Source: Pyrobaculum calidifontis JCM 11548 (GTDB lineage Archaea > Thermoproteota > Thermoprotei > Thermoproteales > Thermoproteaceae). Taken from it: 32,000 nt of DNA. The position numbers and the translations under genes are program-made. Positions 2,992 through 20,837 of this stretch are shown piece by piece. Numbering within the stretch: the stretch's first letter is position 1; each line of letters starts with the position of its first letter. Below the pieces are notes generated by a model. The model made no database searches, was not told the origin of the DNA, and was given only the letters and a program-made list of their open reading frames with translations. The stretch spans positions 450,001-482,000 of the forward strand of contig NC_009073.1 in NCBI RefSeq assembly GCF_000015805.1. The letters are read 5' to 3'.

Positions 2992-2995
2992 CCAC

Positions 2996-4066: not shown

Positions 4067-4067
4067 A

Positions 4068-5384: not shown

Positions 5385-6337
5385 GGGTGCTGGCAGTGGT
5401 GGAGGATTGGCCAGACCGCGGCGGGGGGCTACTCGCCACAGAGCTATGGCTAAAAGCCGCGTGCAGAGAGGTCGAGGTGGTAGTGGTGGGCCCAAGGCCC
5501 TTCCCCCCATGCCCCCACTTGCCCCACCCCCTACCACACCAGCGGCCCAAGCTCTGGCTCACAAGACCAAGGGTCGACCTAGCCAAATTCGACGTCTTGT
5601 ACATACCCAGATACGCCTACCACCTCATCCCCGCCGCCAAGCGCCTAGGCCTAAGAGCGGTGGTACACATGCACGGATACCCCACCTACCTCTCCACCGG
5701 GCAGCCCCACGACTGGCGCTACGAGACGGCGACTGTGAAGAGACTATACGCCGCCGCGGCCGCCAAGGCGGTGGAGACCCTCATCGACAAGTGGCTCAGA
5801 CAGGCAGACGCCGTCATATGCGTAAGCAGAGCCCACTGCGCCCGCCTGGAGAAGTACCGCGTGGTTTATGTGCCAAACCCCCCGCCCCCAGTCCCCCAGA
5901 TAAGCGCCCCCCGCGCCAGGCGGTTCGTCTACCCATGGGGCCCAAGGCCCTTCAAAGGCCCCCACATAGCCAGAGCCGTCGCAAAGGCCCTCGGCACAGA
6001 GCTGGTGGAGACCGGGGAGTTGAGCAGGGGGGAGTACTACCACGTCGTGGCCACCTCCAAGGCCCTCCTCGCCCCAGCCCTGTGGGACGAGCCCTACGGA
6101 TACGCCGTGGTAGAGGCCATGATGCTCGGCACACCCCCCGTCGCCTTCGCCAGAGGGGCAATACCCGAGTTAGTCGAGGGCACAGAGGCCGAGGCCTACC
6201 TAGCCCACAACCTCGCCGAATTCGCCAAGGCCGCCAAAAAGGCCCTCGAAGAGCCGCCGCCCCCCAAGCTGGCCAAAGAGGCCAGAGAGAAGTTCCGCAC
6301 CGAGCTAGACCGCTTCCTAAAAGCGCTGATGGGGTGA
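5381..6337 (+). CDS. GT-B fold glycosyltransferase (GT4-like)
   Basis: C-terminal WDEPYGYAVVEAMMLGTPPVAFARGAIPELVEG motif. GTG5381 overlaps the upstream stop as GTGA and gives an N-terminus VRVLAVVED typical of GT4. ATG5345 is the longer alternative start. Confidence 0.7.
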   Translation: MRVLAVVEDWPDRGGGLLATELWLKAACREVEVVVVGPRPFPPCPHLPHPLPHQRPKLWLTRPRVDLAKFDVLYIPRYAYHLIPAAKRLGLRAVVHMHGYPTYLSTGQPHDWRYETATVKRLYAAAAAKAVETLIDKWLRQADAVICVSRAHCARLEKYRVVYVPNPPPPVPQISAPRARRFVYPWGPRPFKGPHIARAVAKALGTELVETGELSRGEYYHVVATSKALLAPALWDEPYGYAVVEAMMLGTPPVAFARGAIPELVEGTEAEAYLAHNLAEFAKAAKKALEEPPPPKLAKEAREKFRTELDRFLKALMG

Positions 6338-7344
6338 CCTGGGACGCCACCCTAGCACTGCTCTGGTTCTTAGCCCCAGAGGCAGGCCGCGCCCTCTCCC
6401 CCCGCGACCCAGCCAAGGCAGTGGCCCTCGGCCTCGCCGCGCTGGCCGCCTCCCTAGCCTTCCCCCCAGCCGCCTTACTCATAATAGTCACAAAGAGGCA
6501 CAGGCCAGACCCGTGGTTCCTCGCCGCCCTCAAGCCCATCGCCGTCGCCGCCGCCCTCGGCCACCTACTACCCCACCCCGAGCCCCTCGCCTTCGCCAAA
6601 GGAGGAGTGTGGAGCCAGTACGCCCCCCTCACCTACTACATGTACAAACTGGCCTGGTGGGCAACCCCAGAGGCGGTGGCCCTCGGCGGCACAGCCGCCG
6701 CCGCGGCCATCCTCTACCAAGCCCTAGCCGCCTGGAGAGGGGCAAGGGACGCCGCCCTCCTCACCCTCATGTGGCCCACCCCCGCCTTCCAATACTTCTC
6801 ACACCACGCCTACACCTTCGCCGCCATATGGACCGCGTGGCTCATGTGGGAAAAAGGCCGCAGACGCGCCTGGCTAGGCTACACAGCGCTGGCAACGGCA
6901 TTCCACACCATAATGGGACCCCTAGCCGCCGCCCCCCTCCTCAAACGCAGAGCAATACAAGCGCTAGCCGCCCTCTGGGCCATATACTTCGCCATAAGGG
7001 GGGCCTGGCCCATCGGCGACGTCGTGGCAGGAGCCGCCGCGGCCCTAGCCGACCCAAGCCGCCTAGCCGCCGGCGCAATAGCTCTGCTCGACAGCTTGCC
7101 CACCCTAGCCGCCCTGCCCACATACCTCTACATCCTCGCCACAGCCCACAGAGGAGGCATCTACTACGCCGTAGCCCTGCTGGGAATTGCAATAGCCGCC
7201 CTAACCGCCGCCCACGTGCCGCCCAGCGTCGCCAGAGGCTACATCTCCAGGTTCATATTCCTCGCCCTACCCTTCGCCGGGACAGCCGCCTGGCCCCTAG
7301 GCCTAGCCGCGTATATATACCAGGCAAGCCTCACCGCGGTATGA
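6334..7344 (+). CDS. Polytopic membrane protein (Wzy/O-antigen-polymerase-like or GT-C candidate)
   Basis: 336 aa from GTG6334 (GTGA overlap with the upstream stop), hydrophobic throughout. The part of the 645-aa ORF upstream of 6334 is Arg/Pro-rich and overlaps the GT4-like gene, so it is not coding. Confidence 0.5.
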   Translation: MTWDATLALLWFLAPEAGRALSPRDPAKAVALGLAALAASLAFPPAALLIIVTKRHRPDPWFLAALKPIAVAAALGHLLPHPEPLAFAKGGVWSQYAPLTYYMYKLAWWATPEAVALGGTAAAAAILYQALAAWRGARDAALLTLMWPTPAFQYFSHHAYTFAAIWTAWLMWEKGRRRAWLGYTALATAFHTIMGPLAAAPLLKRRAIQALAALWAIYFAIRGAWPIGDVVAGAAAALADPSRLAAGAIALLDSLPTLAALPTYLYILATAHRGGIYYAVALLGIAIAALTAAHVPPSVARGYISRFIFLALPFAGTAAWPLGLAAYIYQASLTAV

Positions 7345-8657
7345 CCGAGCGAGTGGCCAAGACGGGCTTCCACATATACGGCCAGTCCATCGCCTTCGCA
7401 ATCGGCGGGGGGCTCTACTGGATAATCGCCGCCGCCCTAGTGGGCCCCGCCGAAATGGGAAAAGCGGCGTACGTGGTGTCCCTAGCCGCGCTCGCCTCCA
7501 CCACCGCCGGGCTGGGCCTCGACAGCGCCGTCCTCAAGATGCAACCCAGGGACTGGGGCGCCATGTACACAGCCACAGCCCTCTACCTCGCCCTGTCGGC
7601 GCCAGCGGCGGCTGTAGCGGCCTATGTCGCGTGGCAGAGCTTGGGCCTGCCTGGCGCCATCGCCGCCGCGGTGTTGGCCCTCTCCTGGCTGTCTAACATT
7701 TACACAAGCGCCGTGGTGGCCTCCTTCAACGCCCAGAGGCTGCCCCTCTACGCCGCCGCCTCCATAGCCGCAAGATTCGCAGTAACCTTCGCCGCGCTCG
7801 GGGCGGGGTGGGCCGCCGTGGCCTATGGATACGCCGCGGGAAGCGCCCTCTACCTCGCCCTAACCGCCGCCACAGCCGCCGCCCTGTGGGGGAGGCCGAG
7901 GAGGCTGGGAGAGTTCCGGGAGGTGGCAAAGGCCGGCCTCTCGGCCTGGCCCAGCCAGCTGGTAGCCGCGGCCCTGATGGGGGGAGGCACCGCCCTCGCC
8001 TTCTCCAAAGCCCACGAAGCCGCCGGCGCCTACTACCTAGCCTACACAGTCGCCACAGTCGCCGTCGGCCTGCCGTCTGCGATAGCCAGAGCCGCCATCC
8101 CCTACTTCGCCGCCACGGGATCCCCCGCGGAGAGAGTAGCCGCAGTGACCGCCTACGTGGGAGCCCCCTTCGTCGCCGCCGCAGTAGCCGCCCCCACCCA
8201 GATACTTGCGCTAATTAGGCAAGACTACGCCGCGGGAGGCCCCGACCTAGCCGCACTGGCCCCAGCCCTCTGGCTAAACGCCGTAGCCTCAGTCCACTTA
8301 AACAAGAAGTACGCCGACGGGAGATATGCCACATACGCCCTAGCCTACGCCGCCTTCGGCGCCACGCTGGCAGTCGCGTCGGCCTACATCGGATACGGCC
8401 CAGCCGCCCTCGCCGCCTCCGCCGTGCTCTACGCCCTCTCAGGCGCGCCTCTCAGGCACCTGGCACTGCTGGCCACAGCCGCCCCAGCCCCACTCCTCGG
8501 CGCCGCCCTGCCCTGGCCCGCCGCAGTGGCCGCGGCCTTCCTCCTGTCACTTGCCGCCTCTGCGCCACTGGTCGGGGCAGAGGAGAGGAGGATTGTCGTG
8601 GAGCTCGCCCCCAAATACTTAAAGCCCCTCGTCAAGCGCCTAACGTGGACTGCGTAA
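7341..8657 (+). CDS. Wzx-like oligosaccharide flippase (polysaccharide biosynthesis protein / MOP superfamily)
   Basis: 438 aa from ATG7341 (ATGA overlap). N-terminus KTGFHIYGQSIAFAIGGGLYWIIAAALVGPAEMGKAAYVVSLAAL is typical of the Wzx/RfbX family. About 12 or more hydrophobic segments. Confidence 0.65.
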   Translation: MTERVAKTGFHIYGQSIAFAIGGGLYWIIAAALVGPAEMGKAAYVVSLAALASTTAGLGLDSAVLKMQPRDWGAMYTATALYLALSAPAAAVAAYVAWQSLGLPGAIAAAVLALSWLSNIYTSAVVASFNAQRLPLYAAASIAARFAVTFAALGAGWAAVAYGYAAGSALYLALTAATAAALWGRPRRLGEFREVAKAGLSAWPSQLVAAALMGGGTALAFSKAHEAAGAYYLAYTVATVAVGLPSAIARAAIPYFAATGSPAERVAAVTAYVGAPFVAAAVAAPTQILALIRQDYAAGGPDLAALAPALWLNAVASVHLNKKYADGRYATYALAYAAFGATLAVASAYIGYGPAALAASAVLYALSGAPLRHLALLATAAPAPLLGAALPWPAAVAAAFLLSLAASAPLVGAEERRIVVELAPKYLKPLVKRLTWTA

Positions 8658-9760
8658 CCCTCGTAATACCCACCCTAGACGAGGCCGAGGCCATAGGCAA
8701 AGTGATAGAGGAGGCCAGGAGAGCGGGCTTCACAAAGATACTAGTGGTAGACGGAGGCTCCAGGGACGGCACCCCCCAAATCGCCGCAGAGAAGGGCGCA
8801 GTCGTAATAGGGCAGAGGGGGAGGGGAAAGGGAGACGCCATAGCCACAGCACTAGACTACGTGGACACCCCCTACCTCGTCGTAATAGACGGAGACTACA
8901 CCTACCCCCCAGAGGAGGCCGCCAAGCTAGTCGCATACCTACGGCACTACGACCTAGTCCTAGGCGCGAGGCAGGGCCCCATGCCCCTCATCTACCGCGT
9001 GGGAAACTGGCTACTGGCAAGGGCCATATCCCTAATGTACGGAGTGAGGCTGAGGGACCCCCTCACAGGCATGTACGCCGCCAGGACCGAGGTCCTCAGG
9101 CGAGCCGCCCCCACAGCCCAAGGCTTCGACATAGAGACAGAGATAATAGCCAAGGCAGTGGAACAGGGCGCGTCGGTGAGAGAGGTGCCCATCCAGTACA
9201 GGAAGAGGCTAGGCCGCAAAAAGCTAAAGCCATGGCACGGCCTTCACATCCTCTGGCGCGCAGTGAGAGCCGCCTACACCGCCAACCCACTCCTCGCCCT
9301 ATACCTCGCCGGAGCCCTCCTCGCCGCGCCAGGCCTCGCCCTAGGCGGATGGGTCGCCTACAGGCTATTCTACCAGGGAGTCCCCCACTACATGCTAGGC
9401 TTGTTAGCCCTCGGCCTACTCCTACTCGGGTTGGTCTCCCTCGCCCTAGCCCCCCTAGCCGCCGCCGTGGTGAGACTGAGGGCACAAATCGCCCGCGCCA
9501 CCCCCAGACAGGAGCCCACAGACTGCCTCCCACCACTCCCACCACCCCCACCACCCCAGCCCAGGAGGCGCCCAACCATCTGGGACAGACTAGAGGCAAC
9601 GGCCAGGGGGCTGACAATAGCCTTCGCCGCGACCCTCTCCGCCGCCGCGTACTTCCTAGCCGTGGGAGACACGCCGACCGCGAACAAGCTCGCCGAATAC
9701 GCCTACTACTTCCTCGCCGCCGCGACTGTGATATATCTGGCAGTAGCCGCCAAACAATGA
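8645..9760 (+). CDS. GT2 glycosyltransferase, dolichyl-phosphate hexose synthase-like (DPM1/AglD/AglJ type) with C-terminal membrane domain
   Basis: 371 aa. VTLVIPTLDEAEAIGKVIE, LVVDGGSRDGT, VVIDGDYTYP (DxD). C-terminal TM helices separated by a proline run PPLPPPPPPQPRRRP. 13-nt overlap with the flippase gene. Confidence 0.75.
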   Translation: MDCVTLVIPTLDEAEAIGKVIEEARRAGFTKILVVDGGSRDGTPQIAAEKGAVVIGQRGRGKGDAIATALDYVDTPYLVVIDGDYTYPPEEAAKLVAYLRHYDLVLGARQGPMPLIYRVGNWLLARAISLMYGVRLRDPLTGMYAARTEVLRRAAPTAQGFDIETEIIAKAVEQGASVREVPIQYRKRLGRKKLKPWHGLHILWRAVRAAYTANPLLALYLAGALLAAPGLALGGWVAYRLFYQGVPHYMLGLLALGLLLLGLVSLALAPLAAAVVRLRAQIARATPRQEPTDCLPPLPPPPPPQPRRRPTIWDRLEATARGLTIAFAATLSAAAYFLAVGDTPTANKLAEYAYYFLAAATVIYLAVAAKQ

Positions 9761-10272
9761 GCTGGAGGCTTACCGCCACCGTGGCCATAACCGCCACGCT
9801 GATCGCGCTGGTAGCCGCCCTGTTGCCCCCCACCGACTTGTTGACACAGCTACGCTCAGCCACCTACACCGCCCACTACCCCTGGGGCCTCGTCGCCGCA
9901 GACGGGAGCCACGCATACGCGGAGCTGGGCCCCTACAGGGTGGCCCTCAACCTGTGGAAAATCGTGATATGCGACGGCGGGTGCACCAGCCAGAACATAA
10001 ACGCCATCCAGCTATACGCCCAGCTCAAGGCACAGGGCCAACTCGTCATAGAAGACAGGGGAGGCGGGTGCTACCACGCACAGCTAAAACCCACCCAACT
10101 CGCCGGCAGAGTCGTAGCCGCCGACGTCACCTTCTGCCTACAAAGAGGCATCCCTACCCGGATAGACGGCACAGTCACAATAGACGGACACGAGATAAGG
10201 CTCGGCGGAGAGCCCCACATCGAGCCGACATTCCCAATGGACAAATACCTAGAAATCCACGAAAAAACTTAA
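9757..10272 (+). CDS. Hypothetical exported/membrane-anchored protein
   Basis: 171 aa from ATG9757 (ATGA overlap). N-terminal hydrophobic anchor TATVAITATLIALVAALL followed by a Cys-containing soluble domain (CDGGC). No recognised family. Confidence 0.55.
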   Translation: MSWRLTATVAITATLIALVAALLPPTDLLTQLRSATYTAHYPWGLVAADGSHAYAELGPYRVALNLWKIVICDGGCTSQNINAIQLYAQLKAQGQLVIEDRGGGCYHAQLKPTQLAGRVVAADVTFCLQRGIPTRIDGTVTIDGHEIRLGGEPHIEPTFPMDKYLEIHEKT

Positions 10273-10277
10273 AAAAT
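10268..10277 (+). promoter_or_regulatory. Putative internal TATA box (CTTAAAAAAT) for the downstream gene set
   Basis: A/T-rich element overlapping the stop of the preceding gene, centred about 24 nt upstream of ATG10296. It coincides with a drop in GC content of the locus. Confidence 0.35.
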
Positions 10278-10295
10278 CCCCGCGTTGTGGCGTGT

Positions 10296-10658
10296 ATGCC
10301 CTCGCCGCTGGTGTTGCACAGGTTGTTGGCTGTTAGGTCTTTGGCGCTGCGTAGGGGTGTTTGGTTTAGGGTTAGGCCGGCGGCGAGGGCGCTAATAGAC
10401 GCCGTAATCATACACCTCAGAAGGGGCGGCCGGGTGAAGTCGCCCGCCCTCATCGACGCCCTCAAGAGGGCCGTGGAAGAGGCCCTCTCCCTCGCCGCGC
10501 CGCTTCGCGTAAAGGCGAAGGCCCTGGGATACGCCATAGCCGCCAAGCTCGGCATCACAGTAGACGAAGAGAGAGCCATCGCCCTAGGAATACAATGGAT
10601 AAACACCCCAAAAAGGTATAGAGGAGAGATGCTGCTCACATGGACAGTGGCGCCGTAG
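10296..10658 (+). CDS. Hypothetical small basic helical protein
   Basis: 120 aa from ATG10296. The listed 234-aa ORF extends upstream in Arg-rich sequence that overlaps the previous gene. No recognised motif. Confidence 0.45.
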   Translation: MPSPLVLHRLLAVRSLALRRGVWFRVRPAARALIDAVIIHLRRGGRVKSPALIDALKRAVEEALSLAAPLRVKAKALGYAIAAKLGITVDEERAIALGIQWINTPKRYRGEMLLTWTVAP

Positions 10659-11605
10659 GCGGAATTGAGGTTAGCGTAGTTGTTCCCACCTATAACGAGG
10701 AGAAGAACATCGGGACTCTGCTAAGAGCCCTCGACGAGGCCCTACACGGAATACCCTACGAAGTGGTGATAGTGGACGACGCAAGCCAAGACAAGACCAT
10801 TGAAGTAGCTAATGCCACTCCTATCAGCGGGCACTTAGTTGTATATAGGAAGCCAAAAAGAACGGGAAAGCCGGAGTCCCTCGCCATAGGGCTAAAGGTG
10901 GCCAGAGGCAGATACATTTCCTTCCTAGACGCAGACCTGGAATACCCGCCCAAGGCCATAGCCCAAATGTACCATGAGGCGCTTGAAACGAATGCGGACA
11001 TCATCGCCGCGGCTAGGATAGACAAAAGGCCACTTCACAGAAGAGTAATATCGTGGGGGGCAAAACTCCTAGCAAAGCTAATGATACGAGAGCTGAGGAG
11101 GCTAAGAGACCCCACCACCGAGCTCATACTGGCCAAAAAAGAAGCTCTGGTTAAGGTGGGATTTGAAAAATACGCCAAGTACATAAAGCCCATAACAGCG
11201 GCCCTCCGCCACACAGCAAAACTCGGCTACAGAATAGCCGAAGTGCCAGTAGAGGTGACCCCCAGGCAACACGGCTCCAGTAGCTTCAAGACCAAATGGA
11301 TAACCGCCTACCTGAAAGAGCTAATGGACCTTACCGACTGGCTCATACCCAAATACATCGCAATCGCCCTCGTGGCAGCCCTCATAGCACACGTCTTAAA
11401 CCCAGCCATAGGCATAGCCTCCCTCGCCATGAGCCTAGCCATCCGCTACATCCCACTAAGACGCCTAATCAACCCCCTGGGCCTCATCACGGCCGAGGCC
11501 ACCTCCACAGCGCTAAAAATCGCCTCCGCCTCCCTCATCGGGCTACCTCTCGCTTGGCTAATAGCCTCAGCCCTCGAGGTGGCGCTAGTGATGTGGCTAA
11601 GATAG
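10640..11605 (+). CDS. GT2 glycosyltransferase, dolichyl-phosphate hexose synthase-like with C-terminal TM helices
   Basis: 321 aa. VSVVVPTYNEEKNIGTLL, VIVDDASQDKT, FLDADLEYPP. C-terminal hydrophobic tail. Confidence 0.8.
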   Translation: MDSGAVGGIEVSVVVPTYNEEKNIGTLLRALDEALHGIPYEVVIVDDASQDKTIEVANATPISGHLVVYRKPKRTGKPESLAIGLKVARGRYISFLDADLEYPPKAIAQMYHEALETNADIIAAARIDKRPLHRRVISWGAKLLAKLMIRELRRLRDPTTELILAKKEALVKVGFEKYAKYIKPITAALRHTAKLGYRIAEVPVEVTPRQHGSSSFKTKWITAYLKELMDLTDWLIPKYIAIALVAALIAHVLNPAIGIASLAMSLAIRYIPLRRLINPLGLITAEATSTALKIASASLIGLPLAWLIASALEVALVMWLR

Positions 11606-12423
11606 TGGGAAGATACGGGGGTAAGCCCACGCCCCCAGAGATAGCCTACATAGACGAAAAAGCCATAGCCACATACGAGCCATACGTGGTGCCCGTGATC
11701 TGGGCCCCAGAAGCCCCAACGCCGGAAGCCGCCGTGGTAACCATAGACGGGACGCGGGGCCTATTCGCCTTCAACAACTCGGGCTGTCCACGAAACCCAG
11801 CCGTAGTACAACACCTAAAAAAGAAGATAGAGAGAGTGAGGCGGCTGGGGTACTCCCTAGCAGTCCTCGACGAGCTCAACTACCCCACCCCACACGACGG
11901 CGAGCTCTTCTACAGTTGCTTCTGTCAATACTGCCTAACCCACAGCCCACGGCTAAAAATGCTCAAAAAAGGCGACCTCCAAGGACTCGCCGAGGTCCGG
12001 AAAGACCTCGTGAGGAGCGTGCTGAGAGAGGTGGCCCAATACGCCGAAGGCCTCGGGCTGAGGCTAGAGGCGGCAGTACACGCCCCTACAATAGCCCACC
12101 TAGCAGGCCAAGACTACCACACATTCCTCAGACACGTGGACAGACTACAGGTAATGCTATACCGCAAATGCCCAGGCCCAGCCTGCCTAAACCGAGAGCT
12201 GGCAATGCTCGCCCGCTTCGGCTACAACCCATATGGAATAGACCCAGACGCGGTGGAGAAGGCAGGCGTGCCAATCCGTGTGCTAAAGCAAGAGGCGCAG
12301 AAGGCCAGAGAGCTGGCCGGAGAGAGAGCCATCCCAATACTCTGGGCCGACGAGAAGCTCCCAGAAGCCATAAGGGCGGTAGAGGAGGTGGGATTCGAAG
12401 AAGTCATAATATTCACGCCATGA
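11605..12423 (+). CDS. Hypothetical protein, possible TIM-barrel glycoside-hydrolase-like (GHL/DUF4015-type) enzyme
   Basis: 272 aa from GTG11605 (overlaps the upstream TAG). The segment CPRNPAVVQHLKKKIERVRRLGYSLAVLDELNYP resembles the C-x-x-N-P...LD-x-x-x-x-P pattern of GHL families. Weak assignment. Confidence 0.35.
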   Translation: MGRYGGKPTPPEIAYIDEKAIATYEPYVVPVIWAPEAPTPEAAVVTIDGTRGLFAFNNSGCPRNPAVVQHLKKKIERVRRLGYSLAVLDELNYPTPHDGELFYSCFCQYCLTHSPRLKMLKKGDLQGLAEVRKDLVRSVLREVAQYAEGLGLRLEAAVHAPTIAHLAGQDYHTFLRHVDRLQVMLYRKCPGPACLNRELAMLARFGYNPYGIDPDAVEKAGVPIRVLKQEAQKARELAGERAIPILWADEKLPEAIRAVEEVGFEEVIIFTP

Positions 12424-13532
12424 GAATACTCTGGCTAAACTGGCGCGACATAAAACACCCACTAGCAGGAGGCGCAGAGGTGTACACACACGAAGTGGCA
12501 AAACGCCTCGCCGCACGCGGCCACGAAATCATCCTCGTCACCTCGAGGCCAAAAGGCCTCCCCCCAAGAGAGGAGATAGACGGCTACACAGTGATAAGGA
12601 GAGGAGGCAAGTACACCGTATACCTAGAAGCCCGCCGCCTCTATCACCAGCTAAAGAAGGAGGGCTGGCGCCCAGACGTGGTAATAGACGAAATAAACAC
12701 AGTGCCATTCCTAACCCCCAAATACGTCAAAGAGCCAATAGTAGCCCTGATACACCAGCTATGCAAAGACTGCTGGAAATACGCAGTACACCCACTCGCA
12801 CAGCCCCTAGGATGGTGGCTAGAACAACGCCTACACAAGCCATACATACAAGCGGCAAAGAGAGGCAACCTAAAGGTAATCACAGTCTCCCCCAGCACAG
12901 CCCAAGACCTATACGACCTAGGCTACCCACCCTACGCAGTAGCCATAGTCCCAAATGGGCTAGACTGGGAGCTATATAAAGACTGCAACAGCCAAAAGCG
13001 TGACTTAGTCACCTACGTGGGGAGAATAACCCCCTACAAAAGACTAGAAGACCTCCTAAAAGCTTGGAAAACTGTGGAAAAAAGCTACGACGCCGAGCTG
13101 ATCATTGCAGGCCGGGCCGACCCACGTTACCTAGCCAGACTCACAAAACTAGCCAAAAGACTAGACCTTAGCCGCGTCAACATAAAGGCTAACATTACCC
13201 AGCAAGAAAAAAAGGCACTACTAGCCGAGGCAAAGCTCCTCGTATACACATCCGTCCGCGAAGGCTGGGGACAAACAATCCTAGAAGCTGCGGCATGCAA
13301 GACACCATCAGTGGTATACAACGTACCTGGCCTAAGAGACGCCGTAAAGCACATGGAAACAGGTGTAATAGTAAAGCCAGGGAACATAGAAGAGCTAGCA
13401 AAGACAATAGTACTTGTAATGACAGAGGAAGAATTAGGGAAAAGGCTAGGAGAGATGGCCTATTTGTATGCACAGACATTTAGTTGGGATTTTACAGCAA
13501 AATTATTTTTAAAAGAAATTAATACAAGTTAA
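12420..13532 (+). CDS. GT-B fold glycosyltransferase (GT4 family)
   Basis: About 370 aa from ATG12420 (ATGA overlap). MRILWLNWRDIKHPLAGGAEVYTHEVAKRLAARGHEI and C-terminal EGWGQTILEAAACKTPSVVYNVPGLRDAV. The upstream part of the 538-aa ORF is Arg/Pro-rich read-through. The last ~100 nt are already AT-rich. Confidence 0.8.
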   Translation: MRILWLNWRDIKHPLAGGAEVYTHEVAKRLAARGHEIILVTSRPKGLPPREEIDGYTVIRRGGKYTVYLEARRLYHQLKKEGWRPDVVIDEINTVPFLTPKYVKEPIVALIHQLCKDCWKYAVHPLAQPLGWWLEQRLHKPYIQAAKRGNLKVITVSPSTAQDLYDLGYPPYAVAIVPNGLDWELYKDCNSQKRDLVTYVGRITPYKRLEDLLKAWKTVEKSYDAELIIAGRADPRYLARLTKLAKRLDLSRVNIKANITQQEKKALLAEAKLLVYTSVREGWGQTILEAAACKTPSVVYNVPGLRDAVKHMETGVIVKPGNIEELAKTIVLVMTEEELGKRLGEMAYLYAQTFSWDFTAKLFLKEINTS

Positions 13533-13535
13533 AAT

Positions 13536-14441
13536 ATGCAAAATAAAGAAGGGGTTACAATTGGAATACCGGTTTACAACGAAGAAAAAAATATACAAAG
13601 ACTTCTTAAAAGTTTGGCCATTCAAAAAAATGTTAATATAGATCAAACAATCATCGTTAATGATGGTTCTACAGATAATACAACAGCAAAAATACATGAA
13701 CTTAATACCTCAATAAAAAACAAACTTAATTTACATATAATTAACTTAGAAAAAAACATGGGAAAAGCAAATGCGCTAAACATAATTTTTAACAAAGCAA
13801 ATTCGGAAATATTGATTATCCTAGATGCAGATGTAATTCTTATAAAAAGCAATACATTAGAAGAATTGTTACGATGCTTTCAAATGGACAAAAACATAGG
13901 ATTAGTAAGCGGATGGTACATAATGGAGCCGCTTAAATCAACAAATATAATTGCAAGAGCGTATAGATTTTCAAACATATTACTCGAAAATCTAAGCAAA
14001 AAGAAACCATTGTATAGTGCCACTGGTGCTATTATGGCTTTACATAAAAGCATTTATAAAAAACTATCACTGCCACACAATGTTGTGAGGGATGATGCAT
14101 ATATTTATCTCTATACAGTAAAAAATGGAAAAAAGTATGTGTTTTGTCCAAACGCAAGAGTAATTATACCTATATATGAAAAAATGACAACTAAAACATT
14201 TTTATATAGACAACTTCGTGCTACTCGAATTCCAAAAGTTTTTGTAAAAGAATTTGGACAAATTGCAATTGATGAACTTAAAATAAATCCTTCAATAGCA
14301 ATTAAATCGTTTATAAAATCTTATATTAAACAACCATTTGATGGTACAATATACCTCATACTAAAAGTTGTATCAAGTATTTATAAAAGACTTTCAACAA
14401 ACACAAGCGTTAGAATTCATTGGAAAAATTATGAAAAATAA
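13536..14441 (+). CDS. GT2 glycosyltransferase (AT-rich, horizontally acquired)
   Basis: 301 aa. GIPVYNEEKNIQRLL, IIVNDGSTDNT, ILDADVIL (DxD), VRDDAYIYLY, YRQLRATR. Confidence 0.8.
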   Translation: MQNKEGVTIGIPVYNEEKNIQRLLKSLAIQKNVNIDQTIIVNDGSTDNTTAKIHELNTSIKNKLNLHIINLEKNMGKANALNIIFNKANSEILIILDADVILIKSNTLEELLRCFQMDKNIGLVSGWYIMEPLKSTNIIARAYRFSNILLENLSKKKPLYSATGAIMALHKSIYKKLSLPHNVVRDDAYIYLYTVKNGKKYVFCPNARVIIPIYEKMTTKTFLYRQLRATRIPKVFVKEFGQIAIDELKINPSIAIKSFIKSYIKQPFDGTIYLILKVVSSIYKRLSTNTSVRIHWKNYEK

Positions 14442-16566
14442 TTTGATCATATTATTGCTATACATCTTTATAAGTTTAATACCTCTTGTACTCATTTACT
14501 ATGATAATGATTTTAGAATTGTGATTTTCCACGATTCACCGTATCCGTTAAATTCAAAGGAACTCGCCTACCTATTCTTTTATATTTGGCGCGATAATTT
14601 TAATTTCGGTATAGCTGATGTTACAGGTATACCATTATCATTATTTTATCTTTTTATTTATATACTTGAAACAATAACTGTTGATAAAGCTCTAGCGCAG
14701 ATTCTACTTTTATTTATATTAAATTTATTAGCATTATACTCGATCTATTTGTTAGCGAAAGATATTGGTTTAAATAATTCACTAGCCTTAGTGGCATCGC
14801 TTCTATATTCGTTCAACCCTTACTCGCTTTATTACTGTTGGAGGATTTTTAATACTAATATATTTCTATATTCAGTTTTTCCACTTTATATTTTATCCAT
14901 AAACAAAATATACCGAGATAAAAAATACAAATATGTAGTACTGATATTGATCTCTACTGTAATTGCATATCCTTCGTTTACTAATCCAGCCTTTTTCTTG
15001 TCTCTATTTGTTGCATTATTAATTTATTTGCTAACATTATCGGTACTTATAAAGAAGAGCCTTATCGAAACATTTGCTACTTTTATTATAATAATTTTTC
15101 CCATTTTTACTCTAACATTTCCTGTTTATACTAATCTATATTTTGCAGTTAAAGAAAATAATATATTTACAAAAGATGTAATTCACAGCTTAGTAAAAAT
15201 ATATGAATTTAATACTCATAATGTAACTTTACTCAACCTCTTCACTTTAACTGCTATGCCACCTGTCTATGAAAATATTGAATGGTATCCTTTCCAAGAT
15301 TTATATAAAACTAATAATTTCACTATCGCTTTGGGACTTTTTATAGTTTTTATGTTAACCTTATCTTCAATTATTCAAAAAAATCGACTAATTTATGATC
15401 TACTTCCCTATATTTCACTCTTCTTATTTGCTTCATTTTTTACATTTAATAATGAATTTGGACATTACATATTTAGTAACTTAATTAATTTATTAGCACC
15501 ATGGCGTGATCCATATCATAAGCTTGGTTTTATCATTGCTTTAAGCTTAAGTCTCATTTTCTCTAAATCACTTCAGCTTCTAATAAAACTGTTTGCTAAA
15601 AATAACTATATAAGGTTATTTATTTATTTATTAGTTATGCCAATTTTACTATTTTATTTATTTCCATTTTTTACTTTAAATTTCATTCCAGAAAGTTTAA
15701 CTTACGAAAACACCATTATTACTCCTTTTACACAGGTAATCTACGACTATTCTCGTGTTATAGAAATATTGAAAAATGATAATTCTTTCAATCATTCAAT
15801 TGACAGAATTTTAGTCTATCCTTTTACTAATACACTTTGGTGTGAAAATGGCTATTTAGGAAGTGATATTTTACGTTTATATGGTTTCAATACTATTTCT
15901 ACGCTCTCTCACACAAATAGTTTAGAATCAATAAAATTTTTAGAAAATATATTAGAAAATGTAACAGTTATAAGGCAAAGTAATTTTGTTGATATAATCA
16001 GTAGATTAGGTGTAAAGTATATTCTTATCAGAAAGCAAACTTGTCAACGCTATTTAGTTGACCGCGCAATAGTAATCAAGACCATTCTTGAAAATAAGAG
16101 TAATATAATAAAAGTTCTAGAAACTGAACGTTTTGCTTTATTTAAGATAAAAAATGCAACAGTAAGCAGATTTGCTATACTAACTACCACTACCACAGAG
16201 GATTCTAATCTTGATATCTTGAATGTCTTGTTGACCAGCAGAGCTGTAGTTGCCTCAAAGGTTGATCCTTCTACCTGGGAGCTTAATGTCTCTTCTGACA
16301 CGCCCTTTTATCTTATATTTGCAAACAGTTATGACCAATATTGGGAAGCATATATATACAAAAACGGGACATTAGTTAGGACAATTAAGCCAATATCTTT
16401 TTATGGCATCTTTAATGCCTTCTGGATAAATGAAACTGGTAATCTATACATAGTAGTTAAATATAAACTGCAAGAATTTTTTATACTATTTTTGTTGATT
16501 TCATTTATTTTTCTCTCAATATTCATCTTCTTTATCTTTCACATAAAAGGCGATCCTCTTCAATAA
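14431..16566 (+). CDS. Large polytopic membrane protein, GT-C-type glycosyltransferase/polymerase candidate (AftD/DUF3367-like N-terminal pattern)
   Basis: 711 aa from ATG14431 (11-nt overlap with the upstream GT2; ORF opens at 14368). More than 12 hydrophobic segments. The first loop HDSPYPLNSKELAYLFFYIWRDNFNFG resembles the acidic/Pro...W...G loop of GT-C enzymes. A ~250-aa soluble C-terminal domain is followed by a terminal TM. Confidence 0.55.
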   Translation: MKNNLIILLLYIFISLIPLVLIYYDNDFRIVIFHDSPYPLNSKELAYLFFYIWRDNFNFGIADVTGIPLSLFYLFIYILETITVDKALAQILLLFILNLLALYSIYLLAKDIGLNNSLALVASLLYSFNPYSLYYCWRIFNTNIFLYSVFPLYILSINKIYRDKKYKYVVLILISTVIAYPSFTNPAFFLSLFVALLIYLLTLSVLIKKSLIETFATFIIIIFPIFTLTFPVYTNLYFAVKENNIFTKDVIHSLVKIYEFNTHNVTLLNLFTLTAMPPVYENIEWYPFQDLYKTNNFTIALGLFIVFMLTLSSIIQKNRLIYDLLPYISLFLFASFFTFNNEFGHYIFSNLINLLAPWRDPYHKLGFIIALSLSLIFSKSLQLLIKLFAKNNYIRLFIYLLVMPILLFYLFPFFTLNFIPESLTYENTIITPFTQVIYDYSRVIEILKNDNSFNHSIDRILVYPFTNTLWCENGYLGSDILRLYGFNTISTLSHTNSLESIKFLENILENVTVIRQSNFVDIISRLGVKYILIRKQTCQRYLVDRAIVIKTILENKSNIIKVLETERFALFKIKNATVSRFAILTTTTTEDSNLDILNVLLTSRAVVASKVDPSTWELNVSSDTPFYLIFANSYDQYWEAYIYKNGTLVRTIKPISFYGIFNAFWINETGNLYIVVKYKLQEFFILFLLISFIFLSIFIFFIFHIKGDPLQ

Positions 16567-16621
16567 AATACATAAAAATGATTAATTATATAGGCCATAC
16601 ACCGCGCTGAGAATGTAAATC

Positions 16622-16808
16622 GTGAAAATTTTAAGTTTTGGGGCTCGCGTTTAAGCCTGGCACAGACGACGTGAGAGAGTCACGCGGCGTGGAGGTGGCC
16701 AAGCTCTTGGCTGAGGAGGGAGCGGAGGTCTACGTCCACGACCCCGTGGCGTTGGAAAAGGCGAAGGCCGTGCTAGGAGACAAGGTGGCCTATGTGGAAG
16801 ACGCGTAG
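16622..16808 (+). pseudogene. ugd: 3'-terminal remnant of UDP-glucose/GDP-mannose 6-dehydrogenase
   Basis: Translation gives VKILSFG (frame a), then after a GGGG run [55 protein letters not shown]-stop (frame b). [14 protein letters not shown] is the hallmark of the UDPG_MGDP_dh C-terminal domain. About 60 of roughly 430 expected codons remain. High GC, unlike the flanks. Confidence 0.8.
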
Positions 16809-17100
16809 AGACTCGCGAAACCAAGATCTACGAAGGAGTAACATGACAGTGGTGGGCTGGGTTGTGAGATACTTATTATAGGAGCCGTCTCGAAAAGGTT
16901 TTCTAGATTATAACCTTGCATCGCAAAAATGTATATATGCATTGGAAATTCAACGAGGTCGTGAAGCCCGTCTTGGCGAACGGCATAGCCAGCGGCTATT
17001 GGATAGATGACGCCGAATTACGGCACATCTTCCAAAGACCTTATGATGTGGTGGTAAAAATCTCTGCCATGGCTCTAGCCGCAACCATGCCATATTTATC

Positions 17101-17976
17101 ATGGGCCTTACGAAGGGAAATATGACAGAGCCATTAGTATCAATAATAATACCTACACGCAACTCAGAGAAGACACTGCCCCTATGTTTAAGATCTATTG
17201 AAAAACAGACATATAAAAATATTGAAGTAATTGTAGTAGACAATTACAGCAAAGACAAGACTGTAGAAATTGCGAAATCCTATGGTGCGAGAGTGTACTT
17301 CAAGGGCCCTGAACGGTCTGCGCAAAAAAACTTTGGTGCACTCAAGGCCCAGGGAGACTACGTCTACTTCATAGACGCAGACTTCGTCCTCCACGCCCGC
17401 GTAGTAGAGGAAGCGGTCTCCTTAGCTAAGGAGGGATACGACGCAGTAGTAATTTTGAACATAAGCGATCCTCGCCCTAGTCTTGTGGCAAAGATTAGGT
17501 TTTATGAAAGATTGAGTTATTACGGCAGTGAAATGTATGAAGCAGCGAGGTTTATTAAGAAAGATCTTTTTTTAAAAGTTGGCGGTTTTGATATAAGGCT
17601 TTACGCAAATGAAGATTATGAACTCCATCAAAGACTTCTAAGGGCTGGTGCAAAGATTGCCAAAACAAAAAATAGTTTTGAAATACATATAGGTGAACCG
17701 TCAAGTATAAAAGAATTCATAATTAAGAATTTGTATTATGCATCAAATATTAGTACATACTTTAGGAAAAATCCAAATATTCGCCATATGACACCTTTAA
17801 GGCCCACTTTCTTTAGGAAGAGCTTTATAGGACACCTTGGGAGGAAATGGTTGCCAGGCCTATTTTTAGTGATTCTATTCAAAGTTTTACAAGCCACTGT
17901 AATAGGGTTAGGTATTTTAATAAAGTCCAACGTTTTACCATATGAGAATATACAAAAACTTAGAAGAGTAATTTAA
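17101..17976 (+). CDS. GT2 glycosyltransferase (compositionally chimeric)
   Basis: 291 aa. VSIIIPTRNSEKTL, VVDNYSKDKT, FIDADFVL (DxD), ANEDYELHQRLLRAG. Alternative start ATG17122 lies about 27 nt after the A/T box ATATTTAT (17092-17099). Confidence 0.8.
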   Translation: MGLTKGNMTEPLVSIIIPTRNSEKTLPLCLRSIEKQTYKNIEVIVVDNYSKDKTVEIAKSYGARVYFKGPERSAQKNFGALKAQGDYVYFIDADFVLHARVVEEAVSLAKEGYDAVVILNISDPRPSLVAKIRFYERLSYYGSEMYEAARFIKKDLFLKVGGFDIRLYANEDYELHQRLLRAGAKIAKTKNSFEIHIGEPSSIKEFIIKNLYYASNISTYFRKNPNIRHMTPLRPTFFRKSFIGHLGRKWLPGLFLVILFKVLQATVIGLGILIKSNVLPYENIQKLRRVI

Positions 17977-17998
17977 GGTTAACTCTATATAAACTAGA

Positions 17999-18019
17999 AA
18001 TGTTTTTAAATAAAACATT
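17999..18019 (+). terminator. Possible terminator hairpin with T-run after the GT2 gene
   Basis: AATGTTTT (17999-18006) and AAAACATT (18012-18019) form a perfect 8-bp inverted repeat with a 5-nt loop, 23 nt after the stop codon. It contains a T5 run. It is a weak A/T-only stem in AT-rich DNA. Confidence 0.25.
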
Positions 18020-18107
18020 AAATAGTGATGAATAGCGAAACTGTAGTTTACAAGGCAGATGTGTATATCTTAATTGTTCACCATAAACTTTCTTAGAAGG
18101 ATAGGCG

Positions 18108-18403
18108 CATATAGCATATAGAGACGTGAGGACTGAGGTGAGAAGGGTCGTAGAGAGGTGCCGTTTTTTGAGGTGTATGTGAGAGTGCCTTTCGACGTGG
18201 CGATTAGGCGGGATCCCAAGGGGCTTTACGCAAGGGCTCTGCGGGGTGAGTTGAGGGGGTTCACGGGGGTTGACGACCCGTACGAGGAGCCTCTCTCGCC
18301 GGATTTGGTGCTCGACAACGCGGAGCCCCCTCCTGAGAGGAATGCGGAGGTGCTCGCCGGCTTTGTCTTGGAGAGGGTTGAGTATGGAGTCTCACGGGGG
18401 TAG
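18108..18403 (+). pseudogene. cysC: 5'-truncated, frameshifted adenylylsulfate (APS) kinase
   Basis: Translation gives [17 protein letters not shown] in one frame and [59 protein letters not shown] in another. This matches the C-terminal half of CysC (E. coli: [43 protein letters not shown]). The P-loop half is absent. Similarity starts exactly at the AT-to-GC boundary. Confidence 0.8.
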
Positions 18404-18873
18404 GCTGGTCTACAGAGTGGTGGAGGGGTTGGACGAGGCCGCGGCGCTGGCGGATGGGCTTCCTAGGCTGGAGCTGGGGCCTGCCCTGGGCCCGGGGGGA
18501 TTCCCATTAGGAGTCCCTATAGGGAGGTGATGTCTATCGGGTTTAGCCCGGTGGAGGGCTTTATGACGTGAGGCGAGGTTGGGTCTGTGGTTGGGGAGCG
18601 GAGGCTTTTGAGCGGGCGGCTTTTTCCCATCCCGTTGATCTTTGACGTGGGGGAGGCCTTTTGCAGTGTTGGAGGTTTATAGGCTTCCCGGCGGGACTGG
18701 CGCTCCTGGGCGTAATGGGGAGGTGGTTGGGTGCCGGTTTGGCGAGGGGCGCTTGGGCCGGCTTGTGTGTAGGCTTTACTCTGAGTTTGTTCACCTCGTG
18801 CAGGTTAACGCAAAGGGGGTTTGAAGTTAAAGGAGGCGCGCTAAGGCTGGAATTAGCGCACGGCTCTGCTTAA
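18384..18873 (+). pseudogene. sat: Degraded sulfate adenylyltransferase (ATP sulfurylase), N-terminal part only
   Basis: [31 protein letters not shown], then a frame change near a G6 run (18494-18499), then YREVMSIGFSPVEGFMT, an in-frame TGA (18569-18571), GEVGSVVGERRLLSGRLFPIPLIFDVGEA and TAG (18680-18682). Further pieces (GLALLGVM..., FVHLVQV) lie in other frames. The order matches the Sat N-terminal domain (PHGGxLVxRVV...GxFSPLxGFM...PIxL). The catalytic QTRNPxHRxH / GRDHAG region is missing. Confidence 0.7.
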
Positions 18874-18974
18874 AGCGATTGTGGTGGGAAATACCTGTCC
18901 CAATGTTTGTGAAATTGCGGCCCGGCGGAGAAAAGTTTTTCTAAACATATAAGTAGTTCACATGGGGAGGGGGT

Positions 18975-19028
18975 GGGTCAGCGTGCCTGGTTTCGGGCAG
19001 GGACCCCTCCCAAGTCGTTCATCATCCC
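18975..19028 (-). ncRNA. Candidate C/D box sRNA
   Basis: Minus strand reads GGG-AUGAUGA-(37 nt)-CUGA-CCC: a canonical C box, a canonical D box, a 3-bp terminal stem, 54 nt total. Internal D'/C' boxes are poor (GGGU / UGCCCGA), which lowers confidence. Confidence 0.3.
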
Positions 19029-19644
19029 CTCCCCCAATGAGTTTCCCCCTAGAGCGCGTGGACGCACGTTTTGTAGCTAGCTTCTTTCTCTTCACGGAAA
19101 ATTTGGCCAACTCCTCGGAGCGCAGATACATGCCTCTGCGTGGCAACGACGGTTTAAAACGAGACGTAGAGAGTGTGAAAGTGAGGGGGAGTTCGCTGAA
19201 ACTACGTCTCCCTCAGTCTTAACTGCCGCCAGCGGCCAGGCGGCGGGCTCCAGCTGTAGCGTGCTGTGTCAATTTTATCAATTATTTTGTACTGCCTTTG
19301 AAGTCAGCTTCTGTACTGCAGATGGGCCGTAAATGCGGCTATGTCATGGGTGGGCGGGCGTTGTGGGTGTGGTGGATCGTGGTGATGTACCGCGTCGGCG
19401 TAGTAGTGGAGGGCTGACGCCGGCTAGGGGGCGTGGTGGTCGTTAACGTGAACGGCGGCTCGCGGTGGGGGTGGAGATGTCCGTGGAAGAGGGTGCTGGG
19501 GGCAGTATGCGGTATCAAAGAAAGGTTTGTGGCGAGTGAGATTGGCGAGAGGTCGCGCACATGAGCCGTTGCCCTGGGGGTCGTCCGGGCGTGTGGCGTG
19601 GACTGGGGAGGGGCCTCTCTAGGCCTGTGGGGGCGGCGTGCGGT

Positions 19645-20016
19645 TTAGCTCTCCTGTCTTTTCTGTGTGAGGGCGGTTATTAGGAGTCGATAGAGTTCGT
19701 CGAATTTGCGGTTTATCTCGGCGTAGAGGGCGTCGATCTTTGCGTTCATTTCCTTACGCAGTTCCTCGATTTTGGCGTCAAACTTGGCGTCTGTGGCGTC
19801 GAATCTGGCGTACATTTCTCTCCTTAACTGCGCTATCTCCTCTCTTAGCGCTTTTTCTCTTTCGGTTGCCTCGGCGCGCATTGCCCTCACGTCCTCTGAT
19901 ATTGAGCCTAGGTAGAGTATGAGGATGTCCTCTGTGGTAAGCTTCTTGCCCCGCTTTATCTTCTCCATCACGTGTTTCACGGCGGTCTCGATGGCGATAG
20001 AGGCGGCGGCGTCCAT
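19645..20016 (-). CDS. Coiled-coil protein of unknown function
   Basis: 123 aa. The C-terminal two thirds are charged heptad-like sequence (REEIAQLRREMYARFDATDAKFDAKIEELRKEMNAKIDALYAEINRKFDEL). ATG lies 24 nt from a TATA element. Confidence 0.65.
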   Translation of the reverse strand: MDAAASIAIETAVKHVMEKIKRGKKLTTEDILILYLGSISEDVRAMRAEATEREKALREEIAQLRREMYARFDATDAKFDAKIEELRKEMNAKIDALYAEINRKFDELYRLLITALTQKRQES

Positions 20017-20035
20017 AGATGAGAGATGTTGTGTG

Positions 20036-20043
20036 TTTAAATA
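20036..20043. promoter_or_regulatory. Near-palindromic TATA element TTTAAATA between divergent start codons
   Basis: Centred 24 nt from ATG20016 (minus-strand gene) and 27 nt from ATG20067 (27-codon plus-strand ORF). Confidence 0.4.
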
Positions 20044-20696
20044 TGTGGCTTTTTATGTTCGTTAGGATGGGCGCCGAGATTAATGTGGCTGTTTTCAAGG
20101 CGCTGGCTATGCCTAACGGCGGTGTCTTAGCGAGGTACGAAGTGGTGTAGTGACTGAGGTTACTGGTGGTGGGCAATACGGGGGCGGAGGAGTGTGGACA
20201 ACGGAGTGCTAGAGCTTGACGTCTCTCAGGTTGTTGGGCGAGGGGTGCTACGTCGTTGAGAGAAGTCGCCTGTGAATGTGCTAATTAGCGTGGGTGAGTT
20301 GGCTTTATGGCACTACGGGGGGTGAATCTGTTGGCCGTGTAGCTCTTTGTGGCGGCTGTTGGTTGCTCGTCTGACAAGCCTCCTGCTTGTGAGGTCCCTT
20401 GTTGGTGGTTGTAGGGGGCGCGCTTGTTTTCGTAATTTCTTTCCGCGACTGTCCGGCCCCCTTTTGGCCGTTGGCGCAAATTCTTTAGAGGGCTGTGGTG
20501 CATTGGGTATGCTCGCTTGTGGTCTCGCAGTCGCCTTAGGCGGGGGCCGCTGTCTAGGGTCGCTGGAGTTGTGTGCCCTCTCGCACGGTGGTGGTTAGAG
20601 TTGAGGCGCGTCTGTGGCGCTGGCGGACTGGTCTAGCGTGGTCCTACGTCTCTCTCAGGGCCTTGTTTACTTCGGCCTATTACGTCGGCGGTAAAC

Positions 20697-20704
20697 TTTT
20701 AAAT
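20697..20704 (+). promoter_or_regulatory. Putative TATA box (TTTTAAAT) of the tRNA gene
   Basis: Centred about 24 nt upstream of tRNA position 1 (20725). Confidence 0.5.
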
Positions 20705-20724
20705 CGCCGCATTCGTTAACACTA

Positions 20725-20837
20725 GGGCCCGTAGCTTAGCCCGGCAGAGCGCCCTGGGGCCGTGCCCCGCGTAGGGCTCATAACCGGGAAGTCCCGGGAG
20801 GGTGTCCCCGGGAATTCAAATCCCGGCGGGCCCACCA
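20725..20837 (+). tRNA. tRNA with CAU anticodon (elongator Met, or Ile2 if C34 is modified) carrying two introns; 3' CCA encoded
   Basis: Removing 20755-20774 (20 nt, between positions 29/30) and 20799-20814 (16 nt, between 53/54) gives a canonical cloverleaf. Acceptor GGGCCCG/CGGGCCC, U8, D stem GCUU/GAGC, A14, G18G19, anticodon stem CCCGG/CCGGG, loop CUCAUAA (CAT at 20779-20781), variable AAGUC, T arm CCGGG-UUCAAAU-CCCGG, A73, CCA. G1:C72 argues against an initiator. Intron ends can slide by a few nt because of local repeats. Confidence 0.8.

Follow-up and report, generated by a model that had tools for sequence, protein, structure and literature searches.

A decayed cysC-sat gene pair at the distal edge of a glycan gene cluster in Pyrobaculum calidifontis

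The 32-kb stretch of the P. calidifontis genome analysed here (the window) carries a glycosyltransferase cluster of ~16 kb, from about 1894 to 17976, comprising GT2 and GT4/GT1 genes, a flippase-like gene and several unknown genes. The distal part of this cluster is a block of low GC content (0.28 over 13536-16566, and 0.37 for the GT2 gene at 17101-17976, against 0.55-0.68 elsewhere). Beyond this block, and upstream of PaREP1-family genes, lies a segment that resembles cysC (APS kinase) and sat (ATP sulfurylase). The locus raises the question of whether these are working genes and, if not, in which order their loss and the arrival of the low-GC cassette took place. An initial annotation had read the segment as a decayed operon whose pathway was abandoned after the cassette replacement.

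The segment ~18092-18830 is very probably a non-functional cysC-sat remnant at the distal edge of the glycan cluster, formed in the order of events given below. It is an ordinary pseudogene pair with an informative history; the relic itself makes nothing, and its value is historical. Judged from what is left of the two genes, PAPS production from the present-day locus would be impossible. The features of the segment are collected in Table 1.

Table 1 Features of the cysC-sat relic and its surroundings, in window coordinates
Feature	Position	Strand	Basis
Low-GC glycosyltransferase cassette/relic junction	18092-18105	.	GC step; onset of similarity to L092
cysC relic, first kept stretch (frame of 18102), ~residues 87-103 of intact CysC	18105-18157	+	Stitched Pfam match, tblastn
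-1 frameshift of cysC in a GAG/GGA repeat tract	18150-18158	+	Alignment of relatives
cysC relic, 81-codon open frame with GTG start, stop TAG 18401-18403 and C-terminal lid region (RDPKGLY...)	18158-18403	+	PF01583
sat relic, codons 1-~35	18384-18487	+	Sat profile positions 7-39, tblastn
-1 frameshift of sat inside the G3C3G6 run GGGCCCGGGGGG	18488-18499	+	Alignment of relatives
sat relic, second frame (IPIRSPYREVMSIGFSPVEGFMT and GEVGSVVGERRLLSGRLFPIPLIFDVGEA on either side of a stop)	18500-18661	+	PUA_2, Sat profile positions 54-94
In-frame nonsense codon TGA, window-specific	18569-18571	+	TGG (Trp) in L091, L092, L093 and L097
Deletion junction, 62 nt missing relative to L091	18654-18655	+	Alignment of relatives
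8-nt insertion TTATAGGC with in-frame TAG 18680-18682, common to L097 only	18677-18684	+	Alignment of relatives
Probably sat-derived stretch, aligning to the same relic in six relatives	18685-18830	+	Nucleotide alignment
Slowly evolving island within/after the relic, including the hairpin 18789-18809	18745-18900	.	Substitution rate
Non-coding tail accompanying the relic in relatives, homology ending at ~19302-19305	18901-19305	.	blastn
Inverted repeats of the tail	18964-18975/19023-19034; 19161-19169/19202-19210		

Remains of cysC and sat

What 18105-18403 encodes of APS kinase is limited to the C-terminal ~90 residues. The unstitched 81-aa open frame matched PF01583 at 1.7e-18 (model positions 101-152 of 152), and the match widened to positions 85-152 (2.8e-22) when the 17 codons of 18105-18157 were stitched onto it. 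A tblastn search matched 18117-18170 to residues 82-99 of P0012, and in an alignment with intact Pyrobaculum CysC the fragment began at Y90 of 183. The first ~88 codons are missing, including the start codon, the DGD motif and the Walker A P-loop (GxxGxGK[ST]), which sits at residues 14-21 in intact proteins. The C-terminal lid region (RDxKGLY ... FTG[IV]Dx PYExP) was present, and the invariant columns R121-Y128 and T140-P149 were common to the fragment and four intact CysC proteins. The Ser-Pro of the conserved FVSPYRD motif is substituted, the window reading IAYRD. Scored with the NCBI equivalog model TIGR00455, the stitched 99-aa fragment reached 88.2 bits over model positions 101-171 of 184 only, below the curated cut-off of 138.7, compared with 205.1 bits for the intact CysC of P. 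arsenaticum.

The two kept stretches of cysC stand in different frames. Alignment with related loci (described below) placed the shift in the GAG/GGA repeat tract, where the spacing from CGT to GCC is 8 nt in the window and 6, 9 or 12 nt in the in-frame relatives L091, L094 and L095; the same alignment ruled out the T6 run at 18164-18169 as the site. A scan of genome contigs with the cysC fragment, from which the intact Sat reference sequences were drawn, was dominated by the generic RDPKGLYA pattern. Among the matches listed, the best came from bacteria (57-58% identity) and none from Pyrobaculum.

The sat remnant begins at ATG 18384 in a frame that overlaps the end of cysC by 20 nt; of the gene, no more than the first ~95-125 codons, roughly a quarter, are retained. 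A profile of 393 positions, built from seven intact Sat proteins, matched in different frames at positions 7-39 (18384-18476) and 54-94 (18539-18661, 5e-09). By tblastn, the start of sat shared 53% identity over 30 aa with an intact Sat (L053; joint E 2.7e-08). The second stretch alone matched PUA_2 at 1.7e-09 (model positions 45-87 of 159), and the stitched PUA-like domain (PF14306) covered model positions 2-88 of 159 (4.4e-11), across two frames and with one stop inside. In the G/C run at the frameshift, L093 has 1 nt more than the window, and L100 has 1 nt more than the window, L092, L098 and L099. The full 62-nt deletion was also found in L092 and L098; L097, L099 and L100 keep 21-26 nt of the segment. 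Farther on, 18685-18830 gave no match to the Sat profile or to Pfam.

No trace of Sat beyond profile position ~94 was detected on either strand of 18000-19700, nor beyond position ~106 in any relative. The catalytic nucleotidyltransferase domain (PF01747; QxRNPxHxxH and GRD motifs) was found nowhere in the 32 kb, nor in the relatives. When the stitched Sat N-terminus was compared with 5.8 billion proteins by shared 5-residue words, two other relic ORFs and no close intact Sat were returned. The relic sequence is not repeated within the window, and no second cysC or sat was found there (Sat tblastn, nothing else at E<0.1). Set beside bacterial Sat from cysC-sat/sat-cysC loci (L053, L070, L035, L071), the motifs PHGG.LV and FSPLEGFM...RL..G..(W/F)PIP are recognisable in the window, but it has profile positions 7-94 only, at 33-53% identity over short stretches.

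Much of this had been described in the initial annotation and was confirmed: a genuine cysC-sat relic with disabling lesions, the C-terminal part of cysC without a P-loop and in need of a frame change, the start of sat and its overlap, the frame change near the G6 run, the in-frame TGA and TAG, and the fading of sat ahead of its catalytic domain. The further frame changes proposed for sat appeared as indels relative to the relatives, but not by Sat homology. The end given to the segment, 18873, proved to be that of a chance ORF; recognisable homology does not end there. The attribution of the slips to homopolymers held in part: the shift of sat lies in a G/C run, and the length of G runs is variable among relatives, as in L100 and L094, but the shift of cysC lies in a trinucleotide repeat. 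Homopolymer instability in Pyrobaculum has reportedly been noted, in the genome paper of P. aerophilum. A literature search on this instability and on Pyrobaculum sat/cysC found nothing usable.

It is extremely improbable that faulty sequencing or assembly produced the frameshifts and stops and that the organism has intact genes, a concern already raised in the initial annotation. Two of the lesions do lie in repeat-prone DNA (the G3C3G6 run and the GAG/GGA tract). However, ten contigs (L081-L090) from nine sequencing runs of two projects, compared at assembly level, were 100% identical to the window over 10001-20835, the whole relic included, in stretches of up to 10.8 kb. Of the nine runs, seven come from PRJEB12287 at ENA, in which a mock community was sequenced by Illumina (PMC4787001); the Logan runs ERR9765742 and ERR9765743 make up the remainder. 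The identity of these ten independent assemblies shows that no single faulty assembly gave rise to the frameshifts and stops, and several lesions are common to divergent relatives as well. Indel repair could bring back neither the missing 5' half of cysC nor the missing sat catalytic domain of ~270 codons, which are therefore beyond any indel-error explanation.

Related loci and the order of decay

Protein and contig look-ups yielded nine related loci from hot-spring metagenomes. Six of them (L091, L092 and L097-L100, termed clade B) carry the same relic, all with 72-82% nucleotide identity to the window over 18114-19305, and three (L093-L095, clade A) form a sister group. What lies upstream of the relic differs from locus to locus: an intact 424-aa ugd and a 342-aa glycosyltransferase, not of low GC content, in L092; rmlC in L100; an epimerase in L093; and the low-GC GT2 gene in the window. 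At this junction the GC content steps from 0.32 (18050-18099) to 0.50 (18100-18149), and nucleotide similarity to the L092 relic is weak from about 18092 and clear from 18114-18117. APS kinase similarity thus begins where the GC content rises, and cysC is truncated at the right-hand junction of the low-GC block, both as had been proposed. The 5' ends of cysC are nested, at about residue 65 in L100, 72 in L091, 82 in the window, 92 in L093 and 118 in L099; in L097 and L098 only the last ~5 codons are left, from residue ~160. A single common truncation point had been considered and was dropped when tblastn against a full-length reference gave these nested ends.

Because the upstream gene and the cysC end differ per locus and homology stops at ~19302-19305, the relic is a conserved 1.2-kb block between variable regions, with its left end cut to different depths by what would have been successive replacements. 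Here a hypervariable island of glycan genes in Pyrobaculum has its fixed right-hand border. Gene remnants occur at the junctions where surface-polysaccharide cassettes are exchanged, as on the borders of O-antigen or capsule loci in bacteria. Like those borders, the present one combines a conserved flank, eroded fragments, cassettes of deviant GC content, neighbours that vary by strain and nested truncations. Unlike them it is archaeal, its flank is a dead sulfate-activation operon, and recombination is inferred here from mosaicism: L100 sides with L092 in cysC and with L099 in sat. The relics being mosaic, the order of events is blurred by recombination.

The lesions and substitutions nevertheless differ in age between the two genes. 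Specific to the window are the cysC truncation point, the -1 shift at 18150-18158 and the change of TGG to TGA at 18569. By comparison, a 9-nt in-frame deletion in sat is common to all of clade B, and the -1 shift of sat at the G/C run is common to the window, L092, L098 and L099. Since L092, with its intact ugd and without a low-GC cassette, has sat lesions in common with the window, sat was broken before the cassette came. In clade B, changes at codon positions 1, 2 and 3 numbered 3:6:17 in cysC (18236-18367; third-position bias, p~0.002) and were evenly spread in sat (10:12:19 and 13:13:10). Over the same 44 codons of cysC, dN/dS among the relic-bearing lineages was 0.05-0.19, with 10-17 substitutions per pair; it was 0.05-0.09 for the window against L091, L092 and L100, and 0.10-0.29 among clade-A copies of which at least one is apparently intact. 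Because the changes in sat are position-neutral and those in cysC synonymous-biased, sat died earlier than cysC and separately from it. The substitution pattern indicates that sat was neutral during the radiation of these lineages and cysC constrained for most of it.

The favoured sequence of events would accordingly start with the death of sat, which would predate the divergence of the relic-bearing lineages, since the lesions in sat are shared and the substitutions there are neutral with respect to codon position. Through most of the divergence cysC would have stayed under purifying selection, with its upstream partner persisting. The low-GC glycosyltransferase cassette, replacing the 5' half of cysC and everything upstream of ~18092-18105, probably inactivated cysC, and the -1 frameshift would be an additional lesion. 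The relic would then have been kept as a conserved right-hand flank for cassette exchange. Read in this way, it may date the events, with sat lost first and cysC lost repeatedly afterwards, each cassette exchange reaching a different depth.

Two other accounts of the history were weighed against this one. According to the initial annotation, the cysC-sat pair was still working for the ancestral glycan locus when the low-GC cassette replaced that locus, and only then did the two genes decay. The cysC truncation is indeed the cassette junction, and a ugd fragment lies nearby, at 16635-16813. But L092, which keeps an intact ugd and a cassette that is not of low GC content, already has a decayed cysC-sat with sat lesions common to the window, and sat is neutral across the clade whereas cysC is not. 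Moreover, identity to L092 is 95.5% for the ugd fragment and 82% for the relic, so the two have different histories. This late decay of both genes is therefore very unlikely, and the idea that the pathway was abandoned after the cassette replacement had to be given up.

The second account concerns cysC only: its C-terminal fragment, 81 aa in the window and 91-130 aa in relatives, might have been exapted as a small stand-alone protein under selection, so that only the kinase function is dead. The low dN/dS values given above were obtained among lineages without a usable N-terminus, and they fall in the same range as those of clade-A cysC. The third-position bias points the same way, and in the window, L092, L099 and L100 the ORF stays open throughout this segment. 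Furthermore, L092 and L100 have three cysC indels in common, and the frame is restored by a different fourth indel in each, the shared frameshifts having thus been compensated independently. Set against this are the ~5 codons left in L097 and L098, a +2 frameshift within the ORF in L091 and relaxed constraint in L099. As the ORF is missing in the first two and frameshifted in the third, an essential role is argued against. Half of a P-loop kinase fold would be unlikely to fold alone, the mosaic structure allows recent copying of 3' parts from functional alleles, and the samples are small in number of substitutions. On balance, exaptation of the fragment is quite unlikely, and inactivation of cysC after a long period of ordinary constraint is preferred.

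A slowly evolving island and a non-coding tail

The region is not neutral throughout. Over ~155 nt, the island at 18745-18900 had 0.17 changes per alignment column and few indels, whereas the sat relic had 0.47 changes (Fisher p=3e-6); since the island evolves about three times more slowly, not all of the relic region can be regarded as neutral. It holds no conserved ORF. At both gathering and E<=1 thresholds, Rfam gave no match in the relic or the window. The consensus fold of 18735-18900 favoured the + strand (-48 vs -24 kcal/mol), and a structured RNA was not supported there: a compensatory change was seen in one of 52 predicted pairs, and single-sequence z-scores were -0.02 and -0.76. Inspection by eye found no RUGAUGA box of a C/D-box sRNA on either strand. 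A scan of metagenome DNA with the conserved island returned the L092 contig only.

The tail that follows was traced by blastn against L091 and L092, ending at 19302 and 19305. Because a Pfam search on every ORF of 18561-19683, on both strands, gave no match, the tail is not recognisable as the sat catalytic domain or as another gene remnant. It is unlikely that any of three pieces, namely the 81-aa CysC ORF, the PUA-like Sat stub of ~90 codons found in other Pyrobaculum or the 18745-18900 element, is a selected small protein or non-coding element. If one were, such selected pieces would explain why the 1.2-kb block survives between variable regions in every relative.

Intact counterparts and the possible glycan connection

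Intact CysC proteins are encoded by P. ferrireducens (183 aa; P0130, CP003098) and P. arsenaticum (197 aa; P0133, CP000660), and with full-length clade-A CysC as the query, intact adenylyl-sulfate kinases were also found in several Pyrobaculum MAGs. The window fragment aligned with the two named proteins without gaps over residues ~90-178 and shares all their lid motifs (RRDPKGLY, TGxDDPYExP). It differs from them in being frameshifted and in lacking residues 1-~88, with the P-loop GLPASGKT and DGD, as well as the SP of FVSPYRD. In both species cysC overlaps by 4 nt an upstream gene of the alkaline-phosphatase superfamily (PF01663). This partner gene is missing from the window and is a candidate for what the cassette displaced.

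Downstream of cysC, P. arsenaticum has the same cysC-sat order and overlap as the window, with sat likewise cut to its first ~90 codons and without a catalytic domain. Its stub (L103 10539-10811) ends near Sat residue 90 and is open, unlike the sat of the window, which is frameshifted, carries two stops and evolves neutrally. Against clade A, the stub gave a dN/dS of ~0.05-0.11, and therefore sat or the stub was long under selection on the P. arsenaticum and clade-A branches. At the cysC locus of P. ferrireducens no trace of sat was recognised, and the Sat catalytic domain was absent in all Pyrobaculum copies examined. From these copies, sat was probably lost repeatedly and not just once in the distant past.

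The neighbours of the intact cysC genes are ugd, an epimerase, a methyltransferase and glycosyltransferases in P. ferrireducens, and TauE, a sulfatase, rmlA/C and glycosyltransferases in P. arsenaticum. From these gene neighbourhoods, a link of cysC-sat to glycan sulfation is plausible. The initial annotation had gone further in proposing an ancestral sulfated or uronic-acid-containing glycan. The glycan link is in keeping with this proposal, but no sulfotransferase Pfam family was found in the 26 ORFs of the window, six unknowns among them having been scanned at E<=1. Its view that uronic-acid chemistry was abandoned is contradicted by the N-glycan of P. calidifontis, which contains a glucuronate-type residue (PMC8993221), so that uronic-acid synthesis has not been lost from the organism.

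The comparison points to a candidate module of cysC and the PF01663 gene in translational coupling, with TauE, sulfatase and glycan genes as neighbours. Such a module could be the basis of PAPS-dependent surface-glycan modification in Thermoproteales, and sulfated glycans may accordingly be predicted to occur in P. arsenaticum and P. ferrireducens and not in P. calidifontis. In genome annotation, the 81-aa 'APS kinase' ORF ought to be left out of any inventory of sulfur-assimilation genes. In a Desulfurococcales MAG, a 429-aa ORF that gave no NCBIfam match lies directly upstream of cysC and resembles the PF01663 partner by eye.

Possible residual coding constraint in the cysC and sat remnants

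Across the cysC codons at 18236-18367, the lineages bearing the decayed cysC-sat pair differed nearly only synonymously, with dN/dS values of 0.05-0.19 and substitutions by codon position in the ratio 3:6:17. Despite this mostly synonymous pattern, a usable kinase N-terminus was found in none of these lineages. The cysC frame was regained separately in two of the clade-B hot-spring metagenome loci, L092 and L100, after indels that were common to both. In sister clade A, the full-length cysC of L094 carried an in-frame TAG that placed its end 16 codons short of the usual one, and the sat start of the same locus was frameshifted by a G5>G6 slip. These lesions look like an early stage of cysC-sat decay, or else homopolymer error.

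Open Sat stubs, consisting of the PUA-like N-terminal part, were located after cysC in P. arsenaticum (L103) and in the clade-A locus L093, and the catalytic domain was absent 3' of both. The dN/dS of the stub was ~0.05-0.11 between P. arsenaticum and the clade-A copies. The open stub could represent a conserved small protein or the product of recent independent truncations. At 7150-7396 of L093, sat codons ~16-55 were present twice, the second and slightly different copy (GDAARSYWEVSARLEVRPTLGPDGAPIRNPYREVVSIAY) lying where the contig stops. Either the segment was duplicated in tandem or strain variants were joined during assembly.

Features in the window and in related loci
Feature	Location	Remark
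AAA_15/AAA_21 ATPase (348 aa), then 243-aa protein	window 123-1882	upstream of the glycan cluster
ugd 3' fragment and start of next gene	window 16635-16921	similarity to L092
Slowly evolving island, ~155 nt	window 18745-18900	directly beyond the recognisable sat stub
Hairpin GTTCACCT-CGTGC-AGGTGAAC	window 18789-18809	inside the island
Near-palindrome AGAAAAGTTTTTCT, then A/T-rich ATATAA motif	window 18929-18953
12-nt inverted repeat GGGGAGGGGGTG / CATCCCCTCCCC	window 18964-19034	arms 47 nt apart
Upstream gene and intact cysC	L103 (P. arsenaticum) 8751-10594	4-nt overlap
Upstream gene and intact cysC	L101 (P. ferrireducens) 9030-10552	4-nt overlap
429-aa ORF, in position equivalent to the PF01663 gene, and cysC	L003 (Desulfurococcales MAG) 6-1873	putative counterpart of the PF01663 gene
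Full-length clade-A cysC with P-loop	L094 363-1067
Open Sat PUA-like stub after cysC, 90-112 codons	L103 10539-10811; L093 6955-7293

A slowly evolving island and repeats beyond the sat stub

In the alignment with relatives, the island showed 12 changes in 71 columns, as against 108 in 228 for the sat stub (p=3e-6), a rate of change ~3 times lower, and indels in it were scarce. Searches of the island gave no Rfam match, no conserved ORF and no signal in the folding z-score. In the adjoining non-coding tail, the near-palindrome and the inverted repeat were both kept in L091, L092 and L097 of clade B, and together they may constitute a promoter plus a structured transcript.

Genes flanking intact and decayed cysC

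The upstream gene overlapping intact cysC in both Pyrobaculum genomes belonged to the alkaline-phosphatase superfamily (PF01663, Phosphodiest), and TauE and sulfatase genes were close to cysC in P. arsenaticum. NCBIfam supplied no name for the PF01663 gene and no match for the 429-aa ORF. The PF01663 gene is a candidate partner of cysC in a PAPS-dependent process.

Against L092, which has an intact 424-aa ugd, the ugd 3' fragment showed 95.5% identity and the beginning of the gene after it 80.5%, whereas the cysC-sat relic reached only 82% against that contig. The two remnants thus differ in history, and the ugd piece seems to have been gained or recombined recently. The glycosyltransferase gene beside the relic (GT2, 17101-17976) was uneven in composition (GC ~0.44 at 17001-17500 and 0.32 at 17501-18000), which suggests that it is chimeric or recombinant. 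At the start of the window, the 243-aa protein resembled an OLD-like TOPRIM only faintly (E 0.21), and with the preceding ATPase it could form an OLD/Gabija-like defence pair.
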